This document shows positions 2,339 through 60,310 of a stretch of DNA of 64,000 bases, piece after piece. Origin of the DNA: a virus; IMG/VR virus record IMGVR_UViG_3300045988_115788; one strand, written 5' to 3'. The position numbers were made by a program, and so were the translations under genes. How positions within the stretch are numbered: the stretch's first letter is position 1; the number at the start of each line of letters is the position of its first letter. The notes below the pieces were generated by a model that saw only the letters and a program-made list of their open reading frames with translations, did not search any database and was not told the DNA's origin.

Positions 2339-2510
2339 CATAACACTTTCAAGTTATTACAGATATGTACTGATATGTTAGTCAGGAATTTACGCCTATG
2401 GAGAGCACAAGAACTTGTGAGTAGTGATTGGCTTGTCAACACAAAAACATACTCGTTGAAGTAGGAATGGAACATAAAAGTTTATAACTTTTTATAAGTT
2501 TTCAGTAACG
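2339..2510 (+). ncRNA. possible remnant TnpB omega/reRNA scaffold and right end
   Basis: About 170-nt non-coding tail directly 3' of the truncated tnpB, where TnpB guide-RNA scaffolds are encoded. It shares only short blocks with the 3' flank of the intact tnpB. Unverified. Confidence 0.25.
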
Positions 2511-2518
2511 GATGAAGA

Positions 2519-5500
2519 ATGGTAGATACTTATTTTTCATTACACAACCATAGTGATTATAGTAATCCAAGTTTAGGTTTTAGTGATTCTATTTGTAAAG
2601 TGAGTGGCTTGATTCAAAGAGCTTATGATATTGGTTTACAAGGTGTTACTATCACTGACCATGAATCACTTTCTTCTTTTGTTGAAGCATTAAATTATTA
2701 TGAATCAATGGAGCAAACTAGACCTTTTACTCTAGCTTTAGGCAATGAAATTTATCTTTTAACTGAAGAAGAATATGAAGAAAATCGTTATAACAATGGT
2801 ACGATTCCCTATTTTCATTTCATTCTTATCGCAAAAGACGATGAAGGTTATCGACAACTTTGTAAATTATCCACAAGAGCTTGGGAACGAGCTTATATGA
2901 AAGGTTGTTGGCGTAGACCAACTTTAATGGAAGATTTGGTTGAAATTATTCAGCCAAATCAAGGACATGTGTTTGGATTGAGCGCTTGTTTAGGTTCTCG
3001 TATCGACAAAATGCTTCTTGAAAGAAACAAAGCACTGTTTGAAAAAACTGGACACCTAACACAGATTCAACAGATTTTTGGCAAAGATAATTTCTATTTA
3101 GAAGTGCAACCTTCGGAAATAAAAGGAAACGAACAAAGCACTGTCAATACAATGCTTATGAAGGTAGCCAAACAACTGAAGCTCCCTATTGTTGTCAGTA
3201 CAGATAGTCACTATTTAAAAAAAGATGATGCTATTATTCACGAAGTTTTTTTAAAAAGTCAAGATGGCGAAAGAGAAGTAAGTGATTTTTATGCTACTGC
3301 TTACATGATGGAACCATCTGATTTACGAGAACATTTACGACATGAATTTAATGATGAAGAAATTGACTTTTTGATGTCAAATACAGTGGAATTAGGCCAA
3401 CGTATAGGTAAATATAGTTTTAAGCATAAACCAATCATTCCTGAAATTCCTGAAGAAAAAATTCCTGATTTTAAAACCCAACATACTTTTAAACAATATT
3501 ATTCTGAATATGAGTATTTTGGCTATTATGCTAAAGAAGATTTAGATATACATGAGCGTTATTTCTTTTATCAAATTGAGCAAGGACTAAAGCAAAAAGT
3601 TGTATTGAAACATAAGGATGTAAAAACCTATGTTGACCGGCTTAACACTGAATGGAGAGAACTAAAGTTAATTAGTGATGAATTAAATGGTTTCATGGTG
3701 GCATATTATTCAACTATGAGTAAAATAGTAGACCTTATGTGGGAAGCTAATAGTATAGTAGGCCCAGGAAGAGGCTCTTCTTCTGCTTTTTTAACTTGTT
3801 ATTTGTTGGACATTACAGCTATAGACCCTGTTCCGCTAGGTGACTATATGCCTTATTGGAGACATCTTAGCGCAGAAAGAAAGGCGGAGCTTCCTGATAT
3901 TGATACTGACTCAGAACCCAGTAAAAAATACGCTATCATAGAAGAAGTTAAAAAGTTTTTTGGAGAAGATAAAGTATTAAATGTTGCTACATTTTCTTCA
4001 ATTTCATCGAAAATAGCTATTGAAAAGGCTTGCCGTGGTTTAGGGATTGATGATACAACTGCGGCATATTTAAAATCTTTGATTCCTATTAATAGAGGCA
4101 AAATTGCTAAACTTAAAGATTGTTTATACGGTAGTGATAAAACACCTGTAGTTCATGCTCTTGTTGAAGAAATGAAAAAATACCCTAATCTTGAAAAGTG
4201 CGCTTTAGGGTTGTGCGACATTATTTCTCAAAAGGGACTTCATGCTGCGGGCCTTACGATTAGTAATAAGCCATATACAGAATATTGTAGTATGATGAGA
4301 GCGCCTAACGGCACTCCTTGTACTTGCTACAATCTTTGGGACGCAGAAGAAGTAAGTTTAGTTAAATTTGATTTGTTGACAGTTGATGCTCTACAAAAAG
4401 TTCATGGTGCATTAGACGCCATGGTAAATGATGGAACCATTGAATGGCAGGGCAATCTTCGAGACACATACAACAAATATATTCACCCAGACGTTATTGA
4501 TTATGACACTCCTGAGATGTGGGATTGTATCAATAAAATGTATTCTATATTTCAGTGGGCCACACCTTTTTCTGTTGCGGCACTAAAGCAAATTCAGCCA
4601 ACAACTTTATCAGAACTTTCAGCAGGAAATAGCCTAATTAGACTTATGCCAGACGGAGACGGTGAAACACCTCTTGATACCTATGTTCGATATAAAAATC
4701 ATCCTGAACAATGGAGTGTAGAAGCTTCTGCGTATGGGCTTAATGAAGAAGAAAAATCAATCATAGCCAAATACACCAAAGACGCTCATTATCTTGCAGA
4801 TTGTCAAGAAAAGATTATGCGACTTTCTATGGATGAACATATTGCTGGTTATACTCTAAAAGAAAGCAACCAACTTCGCAAAAGCGTAGCTAAAAAAGAC
4901 GAAGCTTTGCAAGAAAAAGCCAAGCAACAATTTTATGAATACGGAAAAAAGCAAGGCACTAGACAAGTGATGCTTGATTATGTTTGGAATGTACTGTTTA
5001 GTAAATCATTTGGATATTCTTTTTCAAGCATCCACAGTTGGGCTTATTCAATGATTGCTCTTCAGGAACTAAACATTTTTTATCATTACGGTGCTATATA
5101 TTGGAACATTGGTTGTTTACTTACAGAAACAAGTGACGAAGGGTCTGGTTCTGGTGCAGATTACGGTAAGATAGCAAAAGCAATTTATAAAATGCTTGCA
5201 TTTGGTGTAAATATTGTATCTCCTAATGTTAATGAATCTAAAGACAACTTTACTCCAAACGCAAAAGAGAACACTATTTATTACGGATTAGCTACAATTT
5301 CTGGAATTAACTCTCAGATAGCGAATCAAATCATTTCTATGCGGCCTTATAATTCATTTTTAGATTTTTATCGCAAAAATACATTTCCTGGTTCTCTCGT
5401 TACAAAGTCTAAAATTATTCAACTAATCAAAGCTGGATGTTTTGATTGTTTTAATACAAATAGAATTAAGGTGATGCAAGAATATTTCTGTTTATCTACG

Positions 5501-6403
5501 CCACAAAAAACAAAGCTTACAACATCTAATTTGCCTGAAATGATTAAAATTGGTGTTGAAATTCCAGAAGAACTTATCAAACCTTATAATTTTAAAAAGT
5601 ATGTTTGTCAAAAGCAATTCTTTTACAGTGTACATCCTTTGTCTAAATCTAAAAAATTATATAAAGTAGATACTACTGTAATGTCATATTGTGAGGAATA
5701 CTTTATTTCCGTAATGAAAGAAGGGGCAGATTATTGGTTTGTTGATAGCGAGGTCGTTATTTGCGACAAATCTATTGATAAATGCTTTAAGCCTGTTTTT
5801 AATGAGTTAAAGTCTTGGCTACAAAGACCTGAAACAATTAAAGAATATAACAAAAAAGCTATTATTGCCGCGTACAACACACTAGATTGTGTAGATGTCG
5901 ATAGATGGGCAATGCAATCTACGAGTTATTACCATAACAACGGACATGAATTAAAGAATTTAGATTTTAAGCGTTACGGCATTAGTAGATTTTCCGACCT
6001 TCCAGAAGAACCAGTATTTGTTGAAAAAAACTTTGGACAGCGTTCTTGGCGGCAATACGAAATCAGCGCCATAGCTGGAACATTGATTGCTAAAGACGAT
6101 ACTAAGCATATAATTACTTTGCTAACTACTGATTATGATGTAGTAAACTGTAAGCTTACTAGAGAAGCCTATGCTCATTATAAACGAGTGATTAGTTCTG
6201 GTAGTGGGAAAGATAAAGTAGTGTATGATGATGCTTGGATTCAAAGAGGGTCTTTGCTGATTGTTTGTGGCTATCGAAACGGTGACGATTTTAGATGTAA
6301 AAAATACAAAAACAGTGTATATGACCATCAAATGATATTGATTAAACATGTATATGAAGATGGGAGTGCAGACTTGCAGACGGAAAGGGTGTTGATGGAA
6401 TAA
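2519..6403 (+). CDS. dnaE: DNA polymerase III alpha subunit (DnaE-type, PHP domain)
   Basis: 1294-aa ORF with N-terminal PHP motif LHNHSDYS, GPGRGSSSAF..AIDP palm motif and PDIDTD catalytic aspartates. Confidence 0.9.
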   Translation: MVDTYFSLHNHSDYSNPSLGFSDSICKVSGLIQRAYDIGLQGVTITDHESLSSFVEALNYYESMEQTRPFTLALGNEIYLLTEEEYEENRYNNGTIPYFHFILIAKDDEGYRQLCKLSTRAWERAYMKGCWRRPTLMEDLVEIIQPNQGHVFGLSACLGSRIDKMLLERNKALFEKTGHLTQIQQIFGKDNFYLEVQPSEIKGNEQSTVNTMLMKVAKQLKLPIVVSTDSHYLKKDDAIIHEVFLKSQDGEREVSDFYATAYMMEPSDLREHLRHEFNDEEIDFLMSNTVELGQRIGKYSFKHKPIIPEIPEEKIPDFKTQHTFKQYYSEYEYFGYYAKEDLDIHERYFFYQIEQGLKQKVVLKHKDVKTYVDRLNTEWRELKLISDELNGFMVAYYSTMSKIVDLMWEANSIVGPGRGSSSAFLTCYLLDITAIDPVPLGDYMPYWRHLSAERKAELPDIDTDSEPSKKYAIIEEVKKFFGEDKVLNVATFSSISSKIAIEKACRGLGIDDTTAAYLKSLIPINRGKIAKLKDCLYGSDKTPVVHALVEEMKKYPNLEKCALGLCDIISQKGLHAAGLTISNKPYTEYCSMMRAPNGTPCTCYNLWDAEEVSLVKFDLLTVDALQKVHGALDAMVNDGTIEWQGNLRDTYNKYIHPDVIDYDTPEMWDCINKMYSIFQWATPFSVAALKQIQPTTLSELSAGNSLIRLMPDGDGETPLDTYVRYKNHPEQWSVEASAYGLNEEEKSIIAKYTKDAHYLADCQEKIMRLSMDEHIAGYTLKESNQLRKSVAKKDEALQEKAKQQFYEYGKKQGTRQVMLDYVWNVLFSKSFGYSFSSIHSWAYSMIALQELNIFYHYGAIYWNIGCLLTETSDEGSGSGADYGKIAKAIYKMLAFGVNIVSPNVNESKDNFTPNAKENTIYYGLATISGINSQIANQIISMRPYNSFLDFYRKNTFPGSLVTKSKIIQLIKAGCFDCFNTNRIKVMQEYFCLSTPQKTKLTTSNLPEMIKIGVEIPEELIKPYNFKKYVCQKQFFYSVHPLSKSKKLYKVDTTVMSYCEEYFISVMKEGADYWFVDSEVVICDKSIDKCFKPVFNELKSWLQRPETIKEYNKKAIIAAYNTLDCVDVDRWAMQSTSYYHNNGHELKNLDFKRYGISRFSDLPEEPVFVEKNFGQRSWRQYEISAIAGTLIAKDDTKHIITLLTTDYDVVNCKLTREAYAHYKRVISSGSGKDKVVYDDAWIQRGSLLIVCGYRNGDDFRCKKYKNSVYDHQMILIKHVYEDGSADLQTERVLME

Positions 6404-12071: not shown

Positions 12072-13256
12072 TTGGTACAAGTAATCAAACGTAACGGAGA
12101 TGTTGTTGATTTTCAACGAGACAAAATTTCTGTTGCAATCCAAAAGGCAATGAAAGAAGTTAGAGATGAAATCAATACTTATGAAGTCAGAGCAATAACT
12201 GATAAAGTAATTGACTCTATTGAACAACGAAAAGAAAATATTAATGTAGAAGAAATTCAAGATATTGTAGAACGTGCGCTTATGACTAGCGGCATGAAGG
12301 ATGTGGCGAAGAGTTACATTACTTATCGCTATTTGCATGGTCTTATTCGAGAATCAAACACTACTGATAGGACTATTAAAGAACTTATCAATGGTGAAAG
12401 CGAATATTGGAACAGTGAAAACAGCAATAAAAATCCAACACTTGTTACTACTCAAAGAGATTATATCGCAGGAATCACAAGTACAGATATTGCTAGACGT
12501 TTTTTACTACCCAAAGATGTTGTTGAAGCACATGATAAGGGCATTATTCATTTCCATGATATTGACTATTTTGCGCAAAAAAGTTTGACGAACTGTGAAT
12601 TAGTAAATCTTGAGGACATGTTGCAAAACGGAACGGTAGTCAATGGAGTTGGCATTGATAAGCCCCATAAGTTGCTTACTGCCGCTACAATCGCTACACA
12701 GATTATTGCAGCAGTAACAAGTTCTACTTATGGTGGGTGTACTATTAACCTTTCTCATTTGGCTCCATTCGTAAGAGATAGTTACAATATTTATTACAAA
12801 AAGTATGAGCAACGAGGTTTTAGTCCAAGTGAATGCCAAAAGTGGGCAGAGCAAGATACTAAGAAGGAAATTGAAGACGCAGTTCAAACCTTTAATTATC
12901 AAACTAATTCCATGACTAATACCAATGGCCAAGCTCCATTCTTGTCTGTGTTCATGTATCTCAATGACAATCCAGAATATATCAAAGAGACAGCAGCATT
13001 GATTAAGGAATTCTTTAATCAACGTATTCTAGGATTTAAGAACGAAGTTGGCCAATATATCACACCAGCCTTTCCAAAGCTATTGTATGTTTTGGATGAC
13101 AATAACATTACCGAGGATTCTGAATATTGGTATCTTACCCAACTTGCAGCAAAATGTACTGCTAAAAGAATGGTACCAGATTATATCTCTGCAAAAATTA
13201 TGCGAAGAGATAAAGTTGATAAGAATGGTAATGGTAATGTCTATGGCTGCATGGGT
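12072..13256 (+). CDS. nrdD: anaerobic ribonucleoside-triphosphate reductase NrdD, exon 1
   Basis: TTG start after AGGAG. ATP-cone-like N-terminus. The coding sense stops matching NrdD after ..NVYGCMG (13256), and an in-frame stop follows soon after. Confidence 0.85.
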
Positions 13257-13570
13257 CAGCGTAAACTACAGCTCATGTAAAATCCTTTGAACCGTGCTAA
13301 CGGGTGTCTATATGATATTTATTATATAGGCTAACGGTTAGGTCTTAATAACCCATTACACTATTAAGATGAGACCGTGGGAAGTTTAATCTTGCCACTT
13401 TATGACAAAGATTGAAAACCTGTATCGACCATCCCTGATGAATGTATGGGAGTAGGGCTGGAGATAAGCACCAGCAGTGTTTTAGGAAACGAAGCACTTG
13501 AAAACCAAAGCGGAGGACTATCGAAAGATAGAAGATATGGTCAGTGCCAATGGTGACATTGGATAACATG
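13257..13570 (+). mobile_element. group I intron (ORF-less) in nrdD
   Basis: 314 nt split the conserved GCMG|CRSFL. The 5' exon ends in U. An internal guide GCUCAUG (13271-13277) can pair with exon CAUGGGU, giving a U.G pair at the splice site. R-like GAGGACUAUCG (13513-13523) and S-like AAGAUAUGGUC (13532-13542) are present. The last nucleotide is G. Confidence 0.8.
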
Positions 13571-14467
13571 TGTAGAAGTTTTTTGACACCTTATGTAGAT
13601 GAGAATAACAAACCGAAATATTGGGGTCGATATAATCAGGGCGTCGTAACAATAAATCTTGTAGACGTTGCATTGTCTTCTGGCGGAGACTTTGATAAGT
13701 TTTGGCATTTGTTTGAAGAACGGACAGAATTATGTCACAAAGCATTACAGTGTAGACATGAACGAATTGCATTAGCTACATCTGATGTAGCTCCTATTTT
13801 ATGGCAACATGGCGCATTAGCAAGATTGCCAAAAGGAGCGCCAATTCACCCATTACTTCATAATGGCTATTCTACGCTCTCCCTCGGCTACGCTGGATTG
13901 TATGAGTGCGTTAAATATATGACCGGCGAATCTCATTCCCATGGAAAAGGATTTGATTTTGGCATTAAAGTTATGCAAGCACTCAATGATAAGTGTGCTA
14001 AATGGAAAGAGGCAGAAAAGATTGACTACTCGCTTTACGGCTCCCCCATTGAAAGCACTACCTACAAGTTTGCAAAATGCTTAAAAACAAGATTCGGCGA
14101 AATTAAAGACATTACAGACCATGATTACGTCACAAACAGCTATCATATTAATGTTCGTGAAGTAATTGACCCATTTGACAAACTTGCTATTGAGGCCAAA
14201 TATCAAAAATTAAGCCCTGGCGGAGCAATTAGCTATATTGAATGTGCCGATTTGACCAATAATATTCCTGCGGTTCTTGAAGTAATTAAATTCATTTATG
14301 ACAATATCATGTATGCAGAACTTAACACAAAAAGCGATTATTGCCAAGTATGCGGTTACGAACATGAAATTGAAATTATTGATGAAGATGGAGAACTTAA
14401 ATGGCGTTGTCCAAATTGCGGCAATGAAGACCAAAACAAGATGAATGTCGCTCGGAGGACTTGCGGT
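13571..14467 (+). CDS. nrdD: NrdD, exon 2
   Basis: Begins CRSFLTPY.., contains the C-terminal zinc ribbon CQVCG..CPNCG, and ends ..ARRTCG at a U (14467). Confidence 0.85.
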
Positions 14468-15348
14468 AAAGATATTGCCGCAGTAAAATGACTTAAATTC
14501 AGAGGAAACCTAAATCTTATATAGACATGGCAATTCTGAGCCAAGCTGATTTATATTATTTTATTATAGAAAGAGGTGATAATGGTGTTAGAACACAAAT
14601 GCGAAGTATGTGGTAGATTATATAGAAAAAAACTAAAAGCAGATGGGAAAATTGTATGTAATAAACATTATAAACAATTTAAAAAATATGGCAAATTTAC
14701 AGACCATTCCCCAAGAATACAAACGGACAAAAATAATATTACAATCGTTGGAGATTTAGCGTATATTGATTTATACGATAAACATTATGAAGTTATTGCA
14801 CAGGCAATAATTGACGCAGAAGATGTTAATCTTGTTAAGAATATTAAATGGAGATTGAATGGCAACGGATATGTTATGAACAATTCCTCAAAGCATACGA
14901 CATTTTTACATTCTTTGATAATGCATACTAAAGAATTAGTAGACCACAAAGATACTAATACACTAAACAACACAAAAGAAAATTTAAGAATCGCAACTAA
15001 AAGTCAAAACCAAATGAATGTAAATTATAAAGGATATTATCTGGTTAACAATAAATGGATTGTGCATATTAAGTTACATCAAAAGCAATTACATCTTGGA
15101 GTGTATTATATAGAAGAAGAGGCGCAATATGCAAGATGGTATGCGGAAAGAATTGTGTTCAAGGAATTTGCTTATCCAAAAGAAGAGCCATACATCCCAG
15201 AACATAGAAAAGCTCAAATACAAGAATATATAAATCAGAAGGTGCAGAGACTATAATAGTCACTATTGTCCTAACAATTAAAATGTATGGGAAATAGAAG
15301 GTATAGTCCACTCCCCTAATAAATATCGGGAAACCGAGGGTACAAAGG
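14468..15348 (+). mobile_element. group I intron with HNH homing-endonuclease ORF, in the nrdD glycyl-radical motif
   Basis: Splits RRTCG|YIGS. A guide GCCGCA (14477-14482) pairs with exon UUGCGGU (U.G at the splice site). R-like GCAGAGACUAUA (15244-15255) and S-like AAGGUAUAGUCC (15298-15309) are present. Ends in G (15348). Confidence 0.8.
14582..15256 (+). CDS. HNH homing endonuclease with AP2-like DNA-binding domain (intron-encoded)
   Basis: ATG 14582 follows AAGAGGTG. Motif HKDTNTLNNTKENLRIATKSQN (HNH_3 type) and an AP2-like YKGYYL..KWIVHI..LHLGVY segment. Confidence 0.75.
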   Translation: MVLEHKCEVCGRLYRKKLKADGKIVCNKHYKQFKKYGKFTDHSPRIQTDKNNITIVGDLAYIDLYDKHYEVIAQAIIDAEDVNLVKNIKWRLNGNGYVMNNSSKHTTFLHSLIMHTKELVDHKDTNTLNNTKENLRIATKSQNQMNVNYKGYYLVNNKWIVHIKLHQKQLHLGVYYIEEEAQYARWYAERIVFKEFAYPKEEPYIPEHRKAQIQEYINQKVQRL

Positions 15349-15438
15349 TATATTGGTTCTCAATTTTGGAATCAAGGACGCACAGAAGAAATCAAGGACA
15401 GATATGTTCATTTAGATAACCACTCTTTGGAGGAATAA
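15349..15438 (+). CDS. nrdD: NrdD, exon 3 (glycyl-radical C-terminus)
   Basis: Hand translation gives YIGSQFWNQGRTEEIKDRYVHLDNHSLEE*. Joined to exon 2 it restores RRTCGYIGS, matching the RVCGY glycyl-radical consensus. Confidence 0.8.
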   Translation, partial: YIGSQFWNQGRTEEIKDRYVHLDNHSLEE

Positions 15439-15439
15439 A

Positions 15440-15988
15440 ATGAATTATTCTTTAATTAACAAAGTAGATATAGTAAATGGCCCAGGAATCAGAATTTCCC
15501 TTTTTGTTTCTGGCTGTAATAGACATTGTAAAAACTGTTACAACAAAGAAGCGCAAAATTTTGATAACGGAGAACCTTTTACTCAAGAAACATATAAAAC
15601 AATCTTAGAACATGTAGCAAAGACTCATTGTTCTGGACTATCCATTTTAGGCGGCGAACCATTAGACCAAGACGCAAATGGGTTAATCGCTTTATTTGAA
15701 CTTGTGCAAGACGTACACAAGCTAGGTAAAACTGTGTGGCTATGGACAGGATATACTTGGCAAGAAGTGTTTGATAAAATTGTAACAGACCCCAAAGCTT
15801 GTAATATGCGCCCTTATCTTCAACAAACTTTACTGTCTGAAGTTGATGTTGTAGTCGATGGGCCTTTTGTTGAAGATAGTAAAGACTTGTCTTTAGCTTT
15901 TAGAGGTAGCTCAAATCAAGGCATCATTGACGTGAAAAAGACTTTAGCAAACGAATACATTACTTTAGTTGAATATATGATTAGATAA
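15440..15988 (+). CDS. nrdG: anaerobic RNR activating protein NrdG (radical SAM)
   Basis: CNRHCKNCYN (CxxxCxxC) cluster and GGEPL motif. Lies immediately downstream of nrdD. Confidence 0.9.
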   Translation: MNYSLINKVDIVNGPGIRISLFVSGCNRHCKNCYNKEAQNFDNGEPFTQETYKTILEHVAKTHCSGLSILGGEPLDQDANGLIALFELVQDVHKLGKTVWLWTGYTWQEVFDKIVTDPKACNMRPYLQQTLLSEVDVVVDGPFVEDSKDLSLAFRGSSNQGIIDVKKTLANEYITLVEYMIR

Positions 15989-34862: not shown

Positions 34863-35300
34863 TTAAATTTTTTGACAAATTGTCAAAATACGTTCTAGTT
34901 CTTCGATAGGTGCTTCATAAAAATCTTTACTCCACACCCAAAAGTCACTATGTTCTGCGCGGCGATATTTAGTTAAAGATTCATCTTCCCATAGTAAATT
35001 CCAACGCTCTTGATGCTTCTTTTGATTAAAGGCCCTGTCTTTGTTAAGACGTTTTAGAATCTTGTCAATTAGTTCGCCACGAAGAAGTCCTTTGTTGTCG
35101 TTATTGATTGCAAAATAATCATAAGCATTTTGAGATGTATTGTAACATAGCGGCCCATTTTCGTTTGAAATAAGACCATTAGTTTCTGTACAAAGCGTTG
35201 CATAAGGCAGATTAACCATGCCTTGAAGTGCTTTTTGATTAAATCTCTTTTTTACAATATAATTATTTTTCATTTTATTCCTTTCTAATTTGCGGCTCAT
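34863..35300 (-). CDS. hypothetical protein immediately downstream of the DGR RT
   Basis: 145-aa ORF overlapping the RT stop by 26 nt (alternative ATG at 35273). No recognisable motif. Confidence 0.45.
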   Translation of the reverse strand: MSRKLERNKMKNNYIVKKRFNQKALQGMVNLPYATLCTETNGLISNENGPLCYNTSQNAYDYFAINNDNKGLLRGELIDKILKRLNKDRAFNQKKHQERWNLLWEDESLTKYRRAEHSDFWVWSKDFYEAPIEELERILTICQKI

Positions 35301-36681
35301 TTAAAATATCGTGTATTTTATCAAAGATGTCCATAGGCTTAGATTTCATTTTAGCAAGATAATCTTTTCGTTCGCAAAGAGGTATGAATCCATTATACAT
35401 CATCGACTCAATTTTCTTTGATTGAAGGTCAAGAAAAATCTTTAATTGTTTTTTAGAACAATAATAGACCCAACCACAATAATCATTCCAAACATATTTG
35501 ATATAACATTTAAAAGGTTTATTTTGTTGACTCAAATATTGAATGAAAGTAGATACAAACTTTTTATCCATATTATATATGGTTCGATAGCAACCAAAAT
35601 GTTTTGCATAGCCTCTCCAACATTGGTATGTTACACAAATATCATCTATTGACATTTTTCCCTCGTCAGCCCATTTCTTGAAAATTTTTAATTTTCTTCT
35701 AATTCTTTTAAGACTATCTTTATTCAATTTTGTTACGATTTTTCCACTATCTGTCAAAGTAAATCTAATTTTCAAAAAAGTAAAACTATGGTGCTTAAAA
35801 GGAGTTATGCGATTTTTCTTTTCGTTTATTTTTATGCCAACAGAATTGGCTAATATTTCAACAAAATTTTTTATCTCTTTTAGTTCTTCAAAAGAATTGC
35901 TGATTACATAACCATCATCCATATATCTGCCATAACCTTTTATGCGAAAAACATCTTTAATGTAATGGTCTATAAGATTAGCATAATCTAAAGCAATATT
36001 TTGTGATATTGGACTGCCTAATCCAACTCCAAATGGCCCCTTAGAATCATGTAAAGTAAGAAATTCATCAATAAATTTATCTCCAAGAACAATCAACTGT
36101 CTATCTTTTATATATTTTCTTAATTCCATTTTTGCACCTTCATGCGGAATTGAAGCAAAATATTTAGAAAAATCATATTGATAAATGCCTCCTTTATAAC
36201 CATACTTTCTATAATGATGCCGCAGTTGCTTTTTTAGCATCTGTATGGCAAAGTGGATACCTTTATTTTTCAACGAAGCTGAATTAGTTGAAACAAAACT
36301 TTTAGAATAAGCTTCTGTCATTATTTCGTTGCAAAAACACTTTTGAACCGCTCTATCTTCAATATTCAAAGCATGTATGTCTCTTATTTTTCCATGCTCA
36401 TTTGTTTTAAAGAAGCAAAAGCCATGAAATTTATAGGCATTAGCATCCATCTTTTTCTTTAATTCAAAAGACCTTATTAACAATTCATTTTCAAAATTTT
36501 GTACTGAAGTTTTCCATCTAACTCCTTTACAACATTCTTTTGATGCTCTATATAAATTTTCAAAAGAATAAACTTCATCATAACTTTTATTTACTATATT
36601 TCTTTTCTTTAAATCTCTTTTTGCTTTACGCCTTAAATATCTTTTCTCATGGCGCTCTTTACTTGTCAGAATTTTCACCAC
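35275..36681 (-). CDS. DGR reverse transcriptase
   Basis: 468 aa. RT motifs YQYDFSKYFASIPH (A), GVGLGSPISQNIA (the [I/L]GxxxSQ hallmark of DGR RTs) and GRYMDDGYVIS (YxDD). Lies adjacent to the TR and avd. Confidence 0.9.
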   Translation of the reverse strand: MVKILTSKERHEKRYLRRKAKRDLKKRNIVNKSYDEVYSFENLYRASKECCKGVRWKTSVQNFENELLIRSFELKKKMDANAYKFHGFCFFKTNEHGKIRDIHALNIEDRAVQKCFCNEIMTEAYSKSFVSTNSASLKNKGIHFAIQMLKKQLRHHYRKYGYKGGIYQYDFSKYFASIPHEGAKMELRKYIKDRQLIVLGDKFIDEFLTLHDSKGPFGVGLGSPISQNIALDYANLIDHYIKDVFRIKGYGRYMDDGYVISNSFEELKEIKNFVEILANSVGIKINEKKNRITPFKHHSFTFLKIRFTLTDSGKIVTKLNKDSLKRIRRKLKIFKKWADEGKMSIDDICVTYQCWRGYAKHFGCYRTIYNMDKKFVSTFIQYLSQQNKPFKCYIKYVWNDYCGWVYYCSKKQLKIFLDLQSKKIESMMYNGFIPLCERKDYLAKMKSKPMDIFDKIHDILNEPQIRKE

Positions 36682-36971
36682 TTTTTATTTTAATTTTTTC
36701 GTATAATTTTTAGTTTTGTTAAAAACTAAGATAATTTGCTAATTACATAACTGGTACCTATGAAATTTGTCTAAAATTATCAAACAACAAACCATGCAAG
36801 AAGCGTCCAGGACACAGTATCGAAAAAATAATTTAGGATGCCAAAGCAGAGCCAAGGATATTTCCCCCTTCTATGAAAAGATTATTTTCACCTAGCAAAA
36901 ACTAGGTTACTTCTCAATCCCAGTAGCCATCTATAACCAAAAAATGGCGGCTACTATTGGCATAGAATCAG

Positions 36972-39363: not shown

Positions 39364-40752
39364 AACAAAACACCCCTTATTGAACCTCACATAGTTAAAG
39401 TCACATGATTCTTGAGAACTCTTTTCCATTGAAAAGATATTTATCAAGCTATCCCGACCGTTCCTGCCGTTCTTTTTTGTATTTGCTAGACTACTTCAAG
39501 TATCCGTATTCCTTCGTTTAAAATATTTATTGCCGCATTTATGTCTCTATCAAGATGAGTATTACAACAAGGACAAACCCATTCTCTAACTTTGAGATTT
39601 TTTGTTTCTTTATTGACATATCCACACACATTGCAAATTTGAGAGCTTGCAAAAAACTTACCTACTTTGACAACTTGTTTACCATACCAATTAGCTTTAT
39701 ATTCCAATTCTCTAACAAACTCAGACCATGATGCATCTGCTATAGACATCGCAAGTTTGTGATTTTTAATCATATTTGACACTTGTAAATCCTCTAAACA
39801 GATTATATCATTATTTCTAATAATTTTAGTAGACAACTTTTGTAAGAAGTCTTTTCTCTGATTCGCAATATGCTCTTGAAGTCTTGCCACTTTAATTCTT
39901 GCTTTATTGCAATTTGAGCCGCCTTTTGATTTTCGAGACAGTTCTTTTTGTAACTTAACAAGTTTATCTAAAGACTTTTTGAAATATTTAGGATTTGCAA
40001 TCATTTCTCCATTAGACATTATACAAAATTCTTTAATTCCTAAATCAATACCAACCGATTTTTCAGTCTTTTCTAATGGTTCCATATTAACATCAGTACA
40101 ACAAAGTGACACATAATATTTTCCACTGGGTACTTGTGACACAGTTGCGTTAAGTATCCTACCTTGTGGTACCAACTTATTTTTCGTTTTTACCATTCCA
40201 AGTTTAGGTAATTTAATGTGCTTATTACAGTATTGAATATTTCCATTAGTGCATTTTGACTTATAAGAATATCTATGAATTTTCTTTGACTTGAATTTTG
40301 GATACCCACTGCGTTCCTTAAAAAAATTCTGATATGCAGAATCCAAATCTTTGAGTGAAGACTGAAGAGCAGTGGAGTCAACCTCTTTAAGCCATTGTAA
40401 TTCTGTTTTAAGATTTTTCATATCGTTTGCACACTGCGCATACGAAAAAGATTTTTTTGATTCTTCATATATTTTAATTCTCTTTGCAAGGTATACATTG
40501 TATATAAATCTACAACATCCAAATGTCTTTGCTATTAACTCTTTTTGTTTCTTATTCGGATAAATCCTGTACTTATAGGCTTTTTCCACTATCTTCACCT
40601 CACTTTATTTGGCACACCAAACCACATGATATTGAATTGCATATAACATATCCTCGACCATGAGTTACTTCCATGATATGTCATCTCATGTGCGTATTTT
40701 CTGTTTTTGCGACGATTTATCTCACCACTGAAGTGACAAGTGTTCTCGCCTT
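39364..40752 (-). mobile_element. IS200/IS605-family TnpB-only element (approximate boundaries)
   Basis: Consists of tnpB, an about 155-nt 5' flank with the imperfect palindrome ACATATC (40646-40652)/GATATGT (40675-40681), and an about 120-nt 3' non-coding flank. No tnpA is present. It interrupts an RBP/partner gene pair. Confidence 0.6.
39486..40598 (-). CDS. tnpB: TnpB (RNA-guided RuvC-like nuclease, IS605 OrfB family)
   Basis: 370 aa. N-terminal [12 protein letters not shown] signature, VGIDLGIK (RuvC-I), CLEDLQV (RuvC-II), CNVCG..CPCC zinc finger and [10 protein letters not shown] (RuvC-III). Confidence 0.85.
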
Positions 40753-58737: not shown

Positions 58738-60033
58738 TCATAGAGGAGCTAAATCATCTCTTGTATCCACCGTACACCTTTCAATTAAATAAGTTTTGTT
58801 TGTTTCTTTTAATTTTAATTTCTTAAAACTGACAGAGCCTTTGTTAACCTTTTGGCCATTTAAATTTCTAATATCAAAGAAACCTGATGCCCTTCTACCA
58901 AATATAAAATATTCGTAATTCTGATATTCTACTCTATCAAAGAGTCTAAAACCTTTGACTGTATACTCAGCTTGATTACGTTTTCGGATGCCACCTTTTA
59001 ACGTATTAGCTTTATATAGCTGACGATTATGACATCTGACCTTTTTATAGTAAAAATACTCTCCACTACTCTTAGCCTTTGGATTTCCACTAATACAACG
59101 TGCATCTAAATAATGTGTCTTTGGTAGATTGTTTTTTATACGAGTGTTTTTCGTAATATAACCATAAGTCATAGAAACATTTGCATAAATTTCCTTTAGC
59201 CGATTATAAAATACCCATCTCATAACATTCATAAAGGCCGCGTGTTTATAAGAGTTTGTTATTTTTGGCTCCCAACCCCAAAGCCTATTAGCTTCTTTTT
59301 TGTGATATTTACTATCATTGCAAGTGTTACAAAGTGTAATCAGACTTGAGGGTTTGTTTGTATGGTCGCCTTTCCAGTAGGCATGGTGGTGTGTTACAAG
59401 AATTGAATCTTTCGATTTACCTTTACACCATTGACAGGTATAATTATCTCGGTGGAAAATATATTCCCTGATATTCCAACCTGTAAGCTCACCTTTCTGA
59501 TAGTCCATCCCTTTTGGAATGGGTTCACCTTCCATTTGAGCTTTAAGCAGTTGCATATCAAACGATGCTGTTTCTACTACAATTTTTGTAATAGGCAACA
59601 TCTTGTGTACTTTTTCTACCATTGCAAAATGAGTCTGAATCTTATGTTCAATACTTGGAGTCAACCAACCTTTGTGTTTGCTGGATACTCGATTGTTAAA
59701 TCGTCTTTTTCTGTAACGGGTTTTACGATTTCGCCTTGAGTGACGAAATTTTCTTCGTGCCTCAAGTAATTTTGTTATATCGTTACGAAGTTCTACATCA
59801 GCTTCAAACAATACTTTATCTTTTGTAGTTGCAGATAATCCAATATGCTTAGAACCGGCATCTACACCTAATGTAATATTTTGTATGCAATTTGTTGTAT
59901 TATACAACAACTGTATCGTAAATGGACAACGCTTAATAACCTTGGCTTTGTTTATCTTTAAAAGCCTTCTTACCTTTCCGTGTCTGTTTGTTGGCATAAG
60001 TGGTTGTCCGTTTTTGTTAAGTACATATACCAT
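58738..60033 (-). CDS. iscB: IscB (OMEGA-family RNA-guided nuclease, Cas9 ancestor type)
   Basis: 431 aa from ATG 60033 (AAGGAG 9 nt upstream). PLMP motif NGQPLMPT, RuvC-I LGVDAGSKHIG, Arg-rich bridge helix RRKFRHSRRNRKTRYRKRRF, RuvC-II IVVETASFD, HNH HRDNYTCQWC...LITLCNTCN, and RuvC-III THYLDARC. Confidence 0.8.
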   Translation of the reverse strand: MVYVLNKNGQPLMPTNRHGKVRRLLKINKAKVIKRCPFTIQLLYNTTNCIQNITLGVDAGSKHIGLSATTKDKVLFEADVELRNDITKLLEARRKFRHSRRNRKTRYRKRRFNNRVSSKHKGWLTPSIEHKIQTHFAMVEKVHKMLPITKIVVETASFDMQLLKAQMEGEPIPKGMDYQKGELTGWNIREYIFHRDNYTCQWCKGKSKDSILVTHHHAYWKGDHTNKPSSLITLCNTCNDSKYHKKEANRLWGWEPKITNSYKHAAFMNVMRWVFYNRLKEIYANVSMTYGYITKNTRIKNNLPKTHYLDARCISGNPKAKSSGEYFYYKKVRCHNRQLYKANTLKGGIRKRNQAEYTVKGFRLFDRVEYQNYEYFIFGRRASGFFDIRNLNGQKVNKGSVSFKKLKLKETNKTYLIERCTVDTRDDLAPL

Positions 60034-60042
60034 AACAAACAC

Positions 60043-60310
60043 TCCTTTTCTTTAATAGTGATATGTTGTATGCTATAAGCCAGTACATATCAAACTGTAA
60101 GATACCTTCGCCTATGTTAATAAGAGGTTTTATATCGGCAACACTGTTCCTACCCATCAGAACTGTTTAACCACCGACCTTAGAGCAAAGGGCTAGGTAT
60201 AACACCCTTTGGTAACTATATATTCTCTTTTAACGTAGTGTTTGAAACACTTAGGCTAGTCAATAAAAGCTTTTGCAAGCCTGCGACTTTAGTCGTGGGT
60301 TATTGACTAT
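60043..60310 (-). ncRNA. candidate IscB omega-RNA
   Basis: About 265-nt ORF-free region directly 5' of iscB, the known location of IscB omega-RNAs. Hand-folded helices: TAGTCAATAA (60309-60300) pairs with TTATTGACTA (60266-60257), enclosing CGAC-UAAA-GUCG and GCUU-GCAA-AAGC hairpins. The ends are not determined. Confidence 0.55.

Follow-up and report, generated by a model that had tools for sequence, protein, structure and literature searches.

Two predicted group I introns next to the catalytic cysteine and glycine codons of a phage nrdD gene

Introns in phage nrdD genes and at the catalytic sites of ribonucleotide reductase (RNR) genes are well documented (PMC3653736, PMC12880540). In a survey from 2013, nrdD was the most frequently split RNR gene of phage genomes (PMC3653736), and in Jug phages it is fragmented in 95 of 104 genomes (PMC12880540). 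For three further Jug genomes with metatranscriptomes, reads support splicing of 37 of the 76 predicted introns (PMC12880540). The codons of critical residues are typical targets of homing endonucleases (PMC3984707). Here, nrdD of the IMG/VR virus record IMGVR_UViG_3300045988_115788 is described; the whole stretch of 64,000 nucleotides (nt) that was analyzed is referred to as the window. The gene (12072-15438) is interrupted by two inserts, at GCMG|CRSFL and at RRTCG|YIGS (the bar marks the junction, and the sites are abbreviated MG|C and G|Y), and we put the probability of both being group I introns capable of splicing at about 93%. The gene and all features of its introns lie on the plus strand.

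Several self-splicing elements per RNR gene, located at catalytic codons, are likewise found in bnrdE/F of SPbeta, nrdE of Twort, Brochothrix A9 and nrdD of Lactococcus phage 949 and of Jug phages (PMC3653736; PMC12880540). The locus also resembles intron- and intein-rich phage RNR genes, in which the same site is used by an intron and an intein in related genomes. The closest described system for the first insert is the T4 nrdD intron, and for the second the introns of Bastille and SPO1 (encoding I-BasI and I-HmuI), which had served as positive controls with previously confirmed splicing (PMC11878797). A published description of the MG|C and G|Y sites was not found in a limited literature search, and nrdD introns are known in T4, Lactococcus phage 949 and Jug phages. 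Since phage RNR introns at catalytic residues are well documented, the two introns are regarded as an addition to a known kind.

Layout of nrdD and the joined product

Joining of the three exons yields an NrdD of 723 amino acids (aa), which is matched by Pfam NRDD over the entire profile (1-562 of 562, E 4.8e-174) and also contains the ATP-cone and Gly_radical Pfam domains. The product aligned with PDB entries 9d3x (2e-128) and 1h78, T4 NrdD (5.6e-110), without a gap at either junction, and it carries the thiyl cysteine loop MGCRSFL, the CxxC...CxxC cysteine cluster of the C-terminal Zn-ribbon and the glycyl-radical motif RRTCGY. A preliminary description of this locus had predicted a product of this length with an intact glycyl-radical site and had suggested its alignment to NrdD references. 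The product was recovered as predicted, and the exon boundaries given there (13256/13571 and 14467/15349) proved to be exact, as judged by the reading frame and the gapless alignment.

Exon 1 (12072-13256; 1185 nt, 395 codons) encodes the ATP-cone and the N-terminal part of the NrdD barrel and aligns with homologue residues 1-395. It starts with TTG, 9 nt after AAGGAG, and ends with GGC TGC ATG GGT (GCMG). Exon 2 (13571-14467; 897 nt, 299 codons) begins with TGT for Cys396, which is aligned with T4 Cys290, and ends with CGG AGG ACT TGC GGT (RRTCG), the last residue being Gly694, aligned with T4 Gly580. Exon 3 (15349-15438; 90 nt, 29 codons and TAA) encodes the C-terminal part of the glycyl-radical loop, YIGSQFWNQGRTEEIKDRYVHLDNHSLEE. 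The first junction therefore lies directly before the codon aligned with T4 Cys290 and the second directly after the codon aligned with T4 residue 580, in keeping with the earlier statement that the insertions occupy conserved catalytic segments. T4 positions were counted along the 1h78 chain, in which residue 580, a glycine in the wild type, is mutated to alanine. We take it as established for class III RNR that T4 Cys290 is the thiyl-radical cysteine and Gly580 the glycyl-radical glycine.

The three exons are colinear and in frame and each of their lengths is divisible by 3. Neither insert (314 nt and 881 nt) has a length that is a multiple of 3, and both contain in-frame stops; the inserts are therefore neither inteins nor translatable through, and both an intein and translational read-through were excluded. 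A T ends both upstream exons (13256, 14467) and a G ends both inserts (13570, 15348), with the terminal G placed at the junction by the reading frame, which agrees with the exon U and final G noted in the preliminary description.

NrdD homologues in the protein database number in the thousands. The closest 120 share 76-85% identity with the joined product. Their length is mostly 720-727 aa and their origin mostly metagenomic; a source name is given for two, both labeled Caudoviricetes sp. Two uninterrupted alleles (L003 and L005) were aligned with the spliced coding sequence at the codon level, and the DNA alignment was gapless at both junctions. As these alleles are colinear with the spliced sequence, the gene is an ordinary nrdD apart from the two insertions. 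The intron-less target around the second site, taken from L003 or L005, reads ...CGTACTTGTGGC|TATATTGGT.

Gene callers report a fragment of 402 aa, a fragment of 313 aa and a gene for an HNH endonuclease at this locus, as would be expected if nrdD were genuinely fragmented, that is, split by mobile DNA including a free-standing HNH gene, with its pieces assembling or the gene being dead. Split yet functional RNR genes are documented, for example the mobE-split nrdA of Aeromonas phage Aeh1 (PMC3653736), an in-frame ATG (13568-70) directly precedes exon 2, and Rfam finds no intron in the inserts. However, this ATG is not conserved and is ACG in many relatives. Exon 3 has neither a start codon nor a ribosome-binding site of its own, and the fragment upstream of it would end at the radical glycine followed by KDIAAVK and a stop. 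In uninterrupted homologues the exon 3 peptide is nonetheless conserved, in frame, at the C-terminus, and all three pieces are conserved at the protein level (76-81% identical to intact homologues) without frameshifts. The covarying helices of the inserts, described below, moreover include exon-guide pairing and a stem enclosing the open reading frame (ORF), features that a free-standing insertion would not have. Genuine fragmentation is thus considered very improbable.

The two-intron nrdD was also present in two further samples (L164 and L165; Logan ERR1302794 and ERR1302880), with exons 97-99% identical to those of the window. An assembly artefact was ruled out by the identical arrangement in these independent samples and by many further contigs. 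Both the L164 and the L165 contig stop about 80 nt past the HNH ORF, within the 3' core of the second intron, and we suspect that the assembly break was caused by sequence that is common to many introns. The closest uninterrupted nrdD allele, L003 (3001-5166 of ENA ERZ27274161 contig k119_24037), contains an in-frame TAG where protein P0001 has glutamine (RDGRQVEF), which indicates that TAG is recoded to glutamine in some relatives of this phage. No in-frame TAG is present in the nrdD exons or the HNH ORF of the window, and ARAGORN detected no tRNA in the window.

Intron 1 and the T4 nrdD intron

The first insert, intron 1 (13257-13570; 314 nt), has the features of a group I intron of IA2-like type with P7.1 and P7.2 and is a relative of the T4 nrdD/sunY intron. 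It contains no ORF, as had been stated before. P1 is formed by the guide GCUCAUG (13271-77) and the exon end CAUGGGU (13250-56), with a U.G pair at the splice site, and the bases directly 5' of the guide (CTACA, 13266-70) provide the P10 strand, which as CUACA perfectly complements the first five bases of exon 2, UGUAG (13571-75). The core comprises P3 (13283-88/13512-17), P4 (13334-37/13375-78), P5 (13343-50/13362-69), P6 (13379-81/13419-21) with P6a (13386-93/13408-15), P7 (13427-31/13538-42), P7.1 (13432-35/13448-51), P7.2 (13457-61/13471-75), P8 (13518-22/13527-31) and P9 (13547-52/13557-62), and the terminal G is at 13570. Two extra hairpins (13292-13303 and 13306-13331) are located between P3 and P4, and another one, optional in the family, follows P7.2 (13476-98). 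The helix order P3-P4-P5-P6-P7-P3'-P8-P7', with the P3/P7 pseudoknot, is present in both inserts, and the R/S-like core elements reported in the preliminary description form P7 in both. An unconstrained minimum free energy fold of the 314 nt reproduced the local hairpins (z-score -4.3).

In a distant BLAST search against phage genomes, a 32-nt block of intron 1 was 93.8% identical to the T4 nrdD intron, which is annotated in the T4 record as a group IA intron encoding I-TevII. The boundaries of the T4 intron were taken from the annotated joined coding sequence. Shared blocks are the guide region GCUCAUGUAAAAUC, the P7-P7.1 block CGACYAUCCCUGAUGAAUGUAWGGGAGUAGGG, which is nearly identical in the two introns, the J8/7-P7' element GAAGAUAURGUC and the P9 hairpin with its GGUGAC cap. 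Both introns interrupt the same gene, use the same P1 guide (GCUCAUG, then UAAAAUC), possess P7.1 and P7.2 and lack P2; the intron starts including the guide read UAACGUAAGUCAAGCUCAUGUAAAAUC in T4 and CAGCGUAAACUACAGCUCAUGUAAAAUC in the window. In contrast, the insertion site of the T4 intron (AYE|YEVN) lies about 215 codons upstream of MG|C, and its ORF encodes a GIY-YIG protein 3' of the core, whereas intron 1 of the window has no ORF and its relatives carry theirs in the P6 loop. The T4 intron further lacks the two hairpins between P3 and P4, where it has UAAAA, and the hairpin after P7.2. The 5' exon flanks (UAUGAGU in T4, CAUGGGU in the window) differ at two of the seven paired bases, yet both pair with the same 7-nt guide GCUCAUG, while the five P10-forming bases 5' of the guide differ and match the different 3' exons.

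A search of IMG/VR with the P7.1 block yielded 79 loci, and both intron ends could be located in 32 of them. All 32 introns follow ...AUGGGU and precede UGY-AGR/CGN, corresponding to MG|CR(S/T); as complete family members at MG|C in IMG/VR this number is a lower bound. The flanking exons encode NrdDs of at least two clades, all of which end in RR(T/V)(C/T)GY. Thirteen further copies were present in genome assemblies (Clostridia, Bacilli, Oscillospiraceae and others), at least six of them complete at MG|C. Lengths within the family vary between 263 and 1135 nt, and GIY-YIG or HNH/NUMOD ORFs occupy the P6 loop of the long members; the P6 loop of the window's intron 1 holds the short P6a hairpin only. 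A match to intron 1 also occurs in Clostridium phage CS266P1, where it lies between two hypothetical genes beside an I-HmuI-like ORF, with no annotated nrdD at that position.

Twenty-one distinct family members were aligned with MAFFT on sequence alone after removal of the P6 loop (alignment A1), and covariation was scored with a hand-drawn group I structure, with the 3' partners slid by 1-3 columns as control. Standard pairs were found in 96.9% of cells compared with 37-45% in the slid controls, and 34 pairs were changed on both sides; the observed values were reached by 0 of 500 shuffles. Covariation was seen in P3, P6, P7.2, P8 and P9, with several pair types in the last four. P3 is paired in 100% of cells with three pairs changed on both sides, one position being C-G in 11 and U-A in 10 sequences, and the copy of the window shows a compensatory C-G of its own in this helix. 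In P7 it likewise has a C-G pair where all other members have U-A. Three pairs covary in P7.2. P4 and P7.1 (UCCC/GGGA) are invariant and therefore uninformative on covariation. The two hairpins at 13292-13331 (A1 columns 48-112) covary within the family as well, and the U.G pair at the splice site is kept in 20 of the 21 members.

Intron 2, its relatives and its endonuclease

The second insert, intron 2 (14468-15348; 881 nt), likewise has the architecture of a group I intron, with an ORF in the P6a loop. The guide GCCGCAG (14477-83) pairs with the exon end UUGCGGU (14461-67), again with a U.G pair at the splice site, so that the wobble-containing guide pairing described earlier was found for both introns. 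The remaining elements are P3 (14489-93/15258-62), P4 (14498-503/14535-40), P5 (14509-10/14529-30) with a receptor-like CCUAAA...CAUGG, P6 (14541-42/15241-42), P6a of 11 bp, which spans the ORF (14546-56/15228-38), P7 (15249-54/15303-08; GACUAU/AUAGUC), P8 (15269-76/15284-92), P9 (15314-17/15337-40), a GAAA-capped hairpin with P9 (15327-36) and the terminal G at 15348. The CCUAAA...CAUGG of P5 presumably resembles an 11-nt tetraloop receptor, and we take the GAAA loop to be L9. For P10, an offset AU-rich pairing is the only one possible; it is not conserved and is not claimed. A group II intron was rejected for both inserts, as they are too short and as both the P1-P9 architecture and the terminal G are characteristic of group I.

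The 5' core of intron 2 (14496-14547, 52 nt) is 84.6% identical to a segment inside the Bastille DNA-polymerase intron that encodes I-BasI, and the two introns share the P4-P5-P6 core. At the 3' end, the P7'-P9 segment has short matches of 90-97% identity in 258 records of phages with Gram-positive hosts (Staphylococcus, Enterococcus, Listeria, Bacillus and related hosts). Introns of Twort-like, Listeria and Enterococcus phages are counted, with those of the Bastille/SPO1 type, among the closest known systems. The segments lie in or beside DNA polymerase, terminase or endonuclease genes or, in many cases, in unannotated sequence. An HNH ORF within the intron and about 90 nt of ribozyme 3' of the ORF are further features in common with the Bastille/SPO1 type. 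The sites differ, being in DNA polymerase, terminase or nrdE there and at nrdD G|Y for intron 2.

The same intron at the G|Y site was found in six or more other contigs, eight further IMG/VR loci carrying it before UAYAUNGG (G|YIG), and in the cultured Enterocloster phage CB473P1 (OP172755; L086 562-3740), where it is unannotated. The exact pattern GAAGGTATAGTCCACTCCCCTAA gave no match in IMG/VR, and shorter core patterns were used instead. The GenBank nrdD of CB473P1 ends with ...RRTCGRPRLF and a stop, the following "hypothetical protein" is the HNH ORF, and an unannotated exon about 100 nt past this ORF encodes YIGTHYWNYGRTEEIRDRFVHLGDNED followed by a stop. CB473P1 thus resembles the window in its homologous HNH ORF, its hidden 3' exon and a compensated exon-guide pairing (UGUGGU/GCCACA as against UGCGGU/GCCGCA), and differs in having no intron at MG|C. 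The R-element and P6' block is also present in dozens of other viral contigs (IMG/VR loci L088-L145, with GGTGCAGAGACTATAAT). In many of these, what comes after the block resembles a tRNA 3' half (…GGTTCGAnnCC…), pointing to phage tRNA genes interrupted by group I introns, whereas other copies are located in exons that are DNA-polymerase-like.

Seven intron 2 sequences were aligned with MAFFT (alignment A2). Paired cells amounted to 89.7% compared with 36-40% in the slid controls, and 24 pairs were changed on both sides. The exon-guide pairing of P1 covaries, with C-G in four and U-A in three sequences, and the U.G pair is kept in all seven. Four of the five P3 pairs are changed on both sides, P4 covaries, and so do 8 of the 11 pairs of P6a. 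The 3' strand of P6a (15228-38) is at the same time coding sequence of the endonuclease (...YINQ...) and lies about 680 nt downstream of its partner strand; covariation in such a position is hard to explain except as an RNA constraint. P7 and P9 are invariant in A2, and P7 is therefore uninformative in this respect.

These patterns also bear on whether one or both introns could be decayed relics that are splicing-defective or depend on a factor, so that NrdD output would be low or conditional. Intron 1 has lost its endonuclease ORF and its extra hairpins are unusual, and splicing of the T4 intron in vivo was reported to depend on translation and growth state (Sandegren and Sjoberg, as cited in PMC3653736). 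However, the core helices are all intact in both copies of the window and the changes in them are compensatory rather than disruptive. The two-intron arrangement is present again in L164 and L165 with nearly identical exons, and the exons are undecayed. Decay is considered slightly less probable even than fragmentation of the gene, and introns competent for splicing remain the preferred reading.

The ORF of intron 2 (14582-15256) encodes 224 aa from ATG 14582, which is most likely the start; a ribosome-binding site, AAAGAGG, is located at 14570-76, and an in-frame GTG occurs upstream at 14576. The last codons overlap the 3' strands of P6a and P6 and the 5' strand of P7, with the TAA stop within or just after P7. 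The protein was matched by Pfam HNH_3 (4e-7, 30 bits, cut-off 24.8) and by PHROG 99, HNH endonuclease (1.7e-22), its HNH motif VDHKDTNTLNNTKENLR is aligned with that of I-HmuI (1u3e) with weak similarity around the motif (E 0.48), and 276 homologues were found in the database, the closest being 98% identical. The ORF had been described as an HNH-AP2 endonuclease. The HNH part of this assignment is supported by Pfam and PHROG, but Pfam AP2 gave no match to the ORF itself even at E up to 10. AP2 matches were obtained for 13 of 45 aligned homologues (best 2.1e-5), and an AlphaFold2 model based on the homologue alignment (mean predicted local distance difference test score 91.6) had plant AP2 domains as best PDB folds (7et4, E 2.7e-3, probability 1.00; 7wq5_A, root-mean-square deviation 1.7 Å over 53 columns). 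The label HNH-AP2 is thus reasonable, with indirect support for AP2 from the homologues and the predicted fold. With the predicted AP2-like domains the endonuclease would differ from I-HmuI, which has a NUMOD-type DNA-binding domain.

Strength of the intron reading, further nrdD sites and significance

Several observations weigh against the reading of both inserts as introns that splice. The Rfam group I model RF00028 gave no match in the whole window at the gathering score, nor in 13100-15500 at E up to 10. To our knowledge, the two hairpins between the 5' strand of P3 and J3/4-P4 in intron 1 have no counterpart in textbook group I structures. In the intron 1 family (A1), 19% of P10 cells are unpaired, and P10 of the intron 2 family is weak or variable. 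For P8 of intron 2, the inner half is peculiar to the window and one relative and cannot be aligned with most other members (55% paired). A database protein identical to the spliced product was not found (best match 81% identity), nor was a near-identical intron-less allele that would represent a recently empty site, the best uninterrupted homologue being 81% identical. Exon structure, homology, the conserved and covarying RNA structure and the endonuclease family are observations, whereas splicing and the activity and target of the endonuclease are inferred.

In the preliminary description, a scan with the Rfam model had been proposed as a check, and the lack of a match had been taken to leave a genuinely fragmented nrdD. 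In a control scan with RF00028, the T4 nrdD intron scored 105 bits and the Bastille intron 47.5 bits, below the cut-off of 50, and no match was obtained to a relative of intron 1 (L013) or to the CB473P1 relative of intron 2 (L086). Since these two relatives were missed as well, the model is blind to both families as families. According to a study of Bastillevirinae introns from 2025, phage introns can escape the Rfam and GISSD models (PMC11878797). Given the misses in the control scan, these published limits of the models and the evidence from homology and covariation, the outcome of the scan was judged not decisive, and that on both inserts was judged to be a false negative; the extra hairpins of intron 1 may be the cause of the failure there.

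If both introns splice, nrdD would be a single gene with two group I self-splicing introns, transcribed in one pre-mRNA together with nrdG. The internal guide of each intron would pair with the end of the upstream exon to form P1, with the U.G pair at the cleavage site, and free guanosine bound in P7 would attack after U13256 or U14467. The freed 3'-OH of the exon would then attack after the terminal G (13570 or 15348) and the exons would be joined, giving an mRNA for the 723-aa NrdD in which Cys396 (thiyl) and Gly694 (glycyl radical) have their usual sequence context. Intron 1, which has neither an ORF nor an endonuclease of its own, belongs to the large family that is related to the intron of T4 nrdD. 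The HNH enzyme of intron 2 presumably nicks or cuts the intron-less nrdD of co-infecting phages at RRTCG|YIG, and repair would copy the intron in by homing. nrdG, encoding the activating radical S-adenosylmethionine enzyme, lies directly downstream of nrdD (15440-15988, plus strand; Pfam Fer4_12, 3.9e-44). The order nrdD-nrdG is also present in L003, L005 and L166 and is the arrangement of intron-less relatives. Among the products of the surrounding phage genome are a DNA polymerase, a RecD-like helicase and tail proteins.

Further insertions were found in related nrdD genes. In two close homologues (P0077 and P0092), an intein that starts with CVAG... and ends with ...SHN occupies exactly the site of intron 1, GCMG|CRSFL, and two others (P0046 and P0091) carry an intein at SL|(T/G)NCELV. 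In L166 (2229-3049 of Logan SRR8316593 contig 5331) an intron of about 821 nt with an ORF of 196 aa splits the codon before the asparagine in GR(F)|NQGVV. Its guide matches its own exon (GGACGGU/GCCGUCC); in this nrdD the MG|C intron is absent and intron 2 is present at G|Y. Including that of T4, at least four intron sites are thus found in nrdD, three of them in this phage NrdD clade, in addition to two intein sites, one of which is shared with an intron. The MG|C family and the T4 intron might be sister lineages in which only the P10 bases were re-tuned, the site having changed within the gene by guide-directed reverse splicing and not by endonuclease homing, with the two-hairpin insertion in J3/4 of the family being what Rfam does not accommodate. 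We regard this proposal as tentative and rather unlikely. If true, nature would have preserved here the move of a group I intron to a new site within one gene, at an inter-codon position that is used by an intein in close homologues.

Other elements were detected elsewhere in the window. A HEARO RNA (60097-60307, minus strand; Rfam RF02033, 152 bits) lies directly upstream of an HNH-type ORF of 434 aa (58738-60042; PHROG 119/2214), and together (58738-60307) they have the arrangement expected of an IscB-type RNA-guided nuclease element. An RT-2 RNA motif (36674-36924, minus strand; RF03077, 93 bits) abuts a reverse transcriptase ORF of 468 aa (35275-36681; PHROG 1423), and a RAGATH-18 RNA motif (2395-2467, plus strand; RF03064, 67.6 bits) is located about 50 nt upstream of the DNA polymerase ORF of 1294 aa (2519-6403). 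An ORF of 370 aa (39486-40598, minus strand) was matched by PHROG 506, "transposase" (1.6e-134), and may be another mobile element amid structural genes.

At present, gene callers and GenBank entries such as that of CB473P1 truncate nrdD at the radical glycine and report fragments. As Rfam in addition misses both intron families, NrdD of phages and prophages in gut metagenomes is mis-annotated as broken. Alignments A1 and A2 could seed covariance models for both families. The understanding of group I introns and of homing is unchanged by this case, and its value lies mainly in the correction of annotation and in better models, the guide shared with T4 at another site being a secondary point of evolutionary interest. 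Two sites are mapped precisely, directly 5' of the thiyl cysteine codon and directly 3' of the radical glycine codon, and they fit homing elements at the most constrained codons of RNR.

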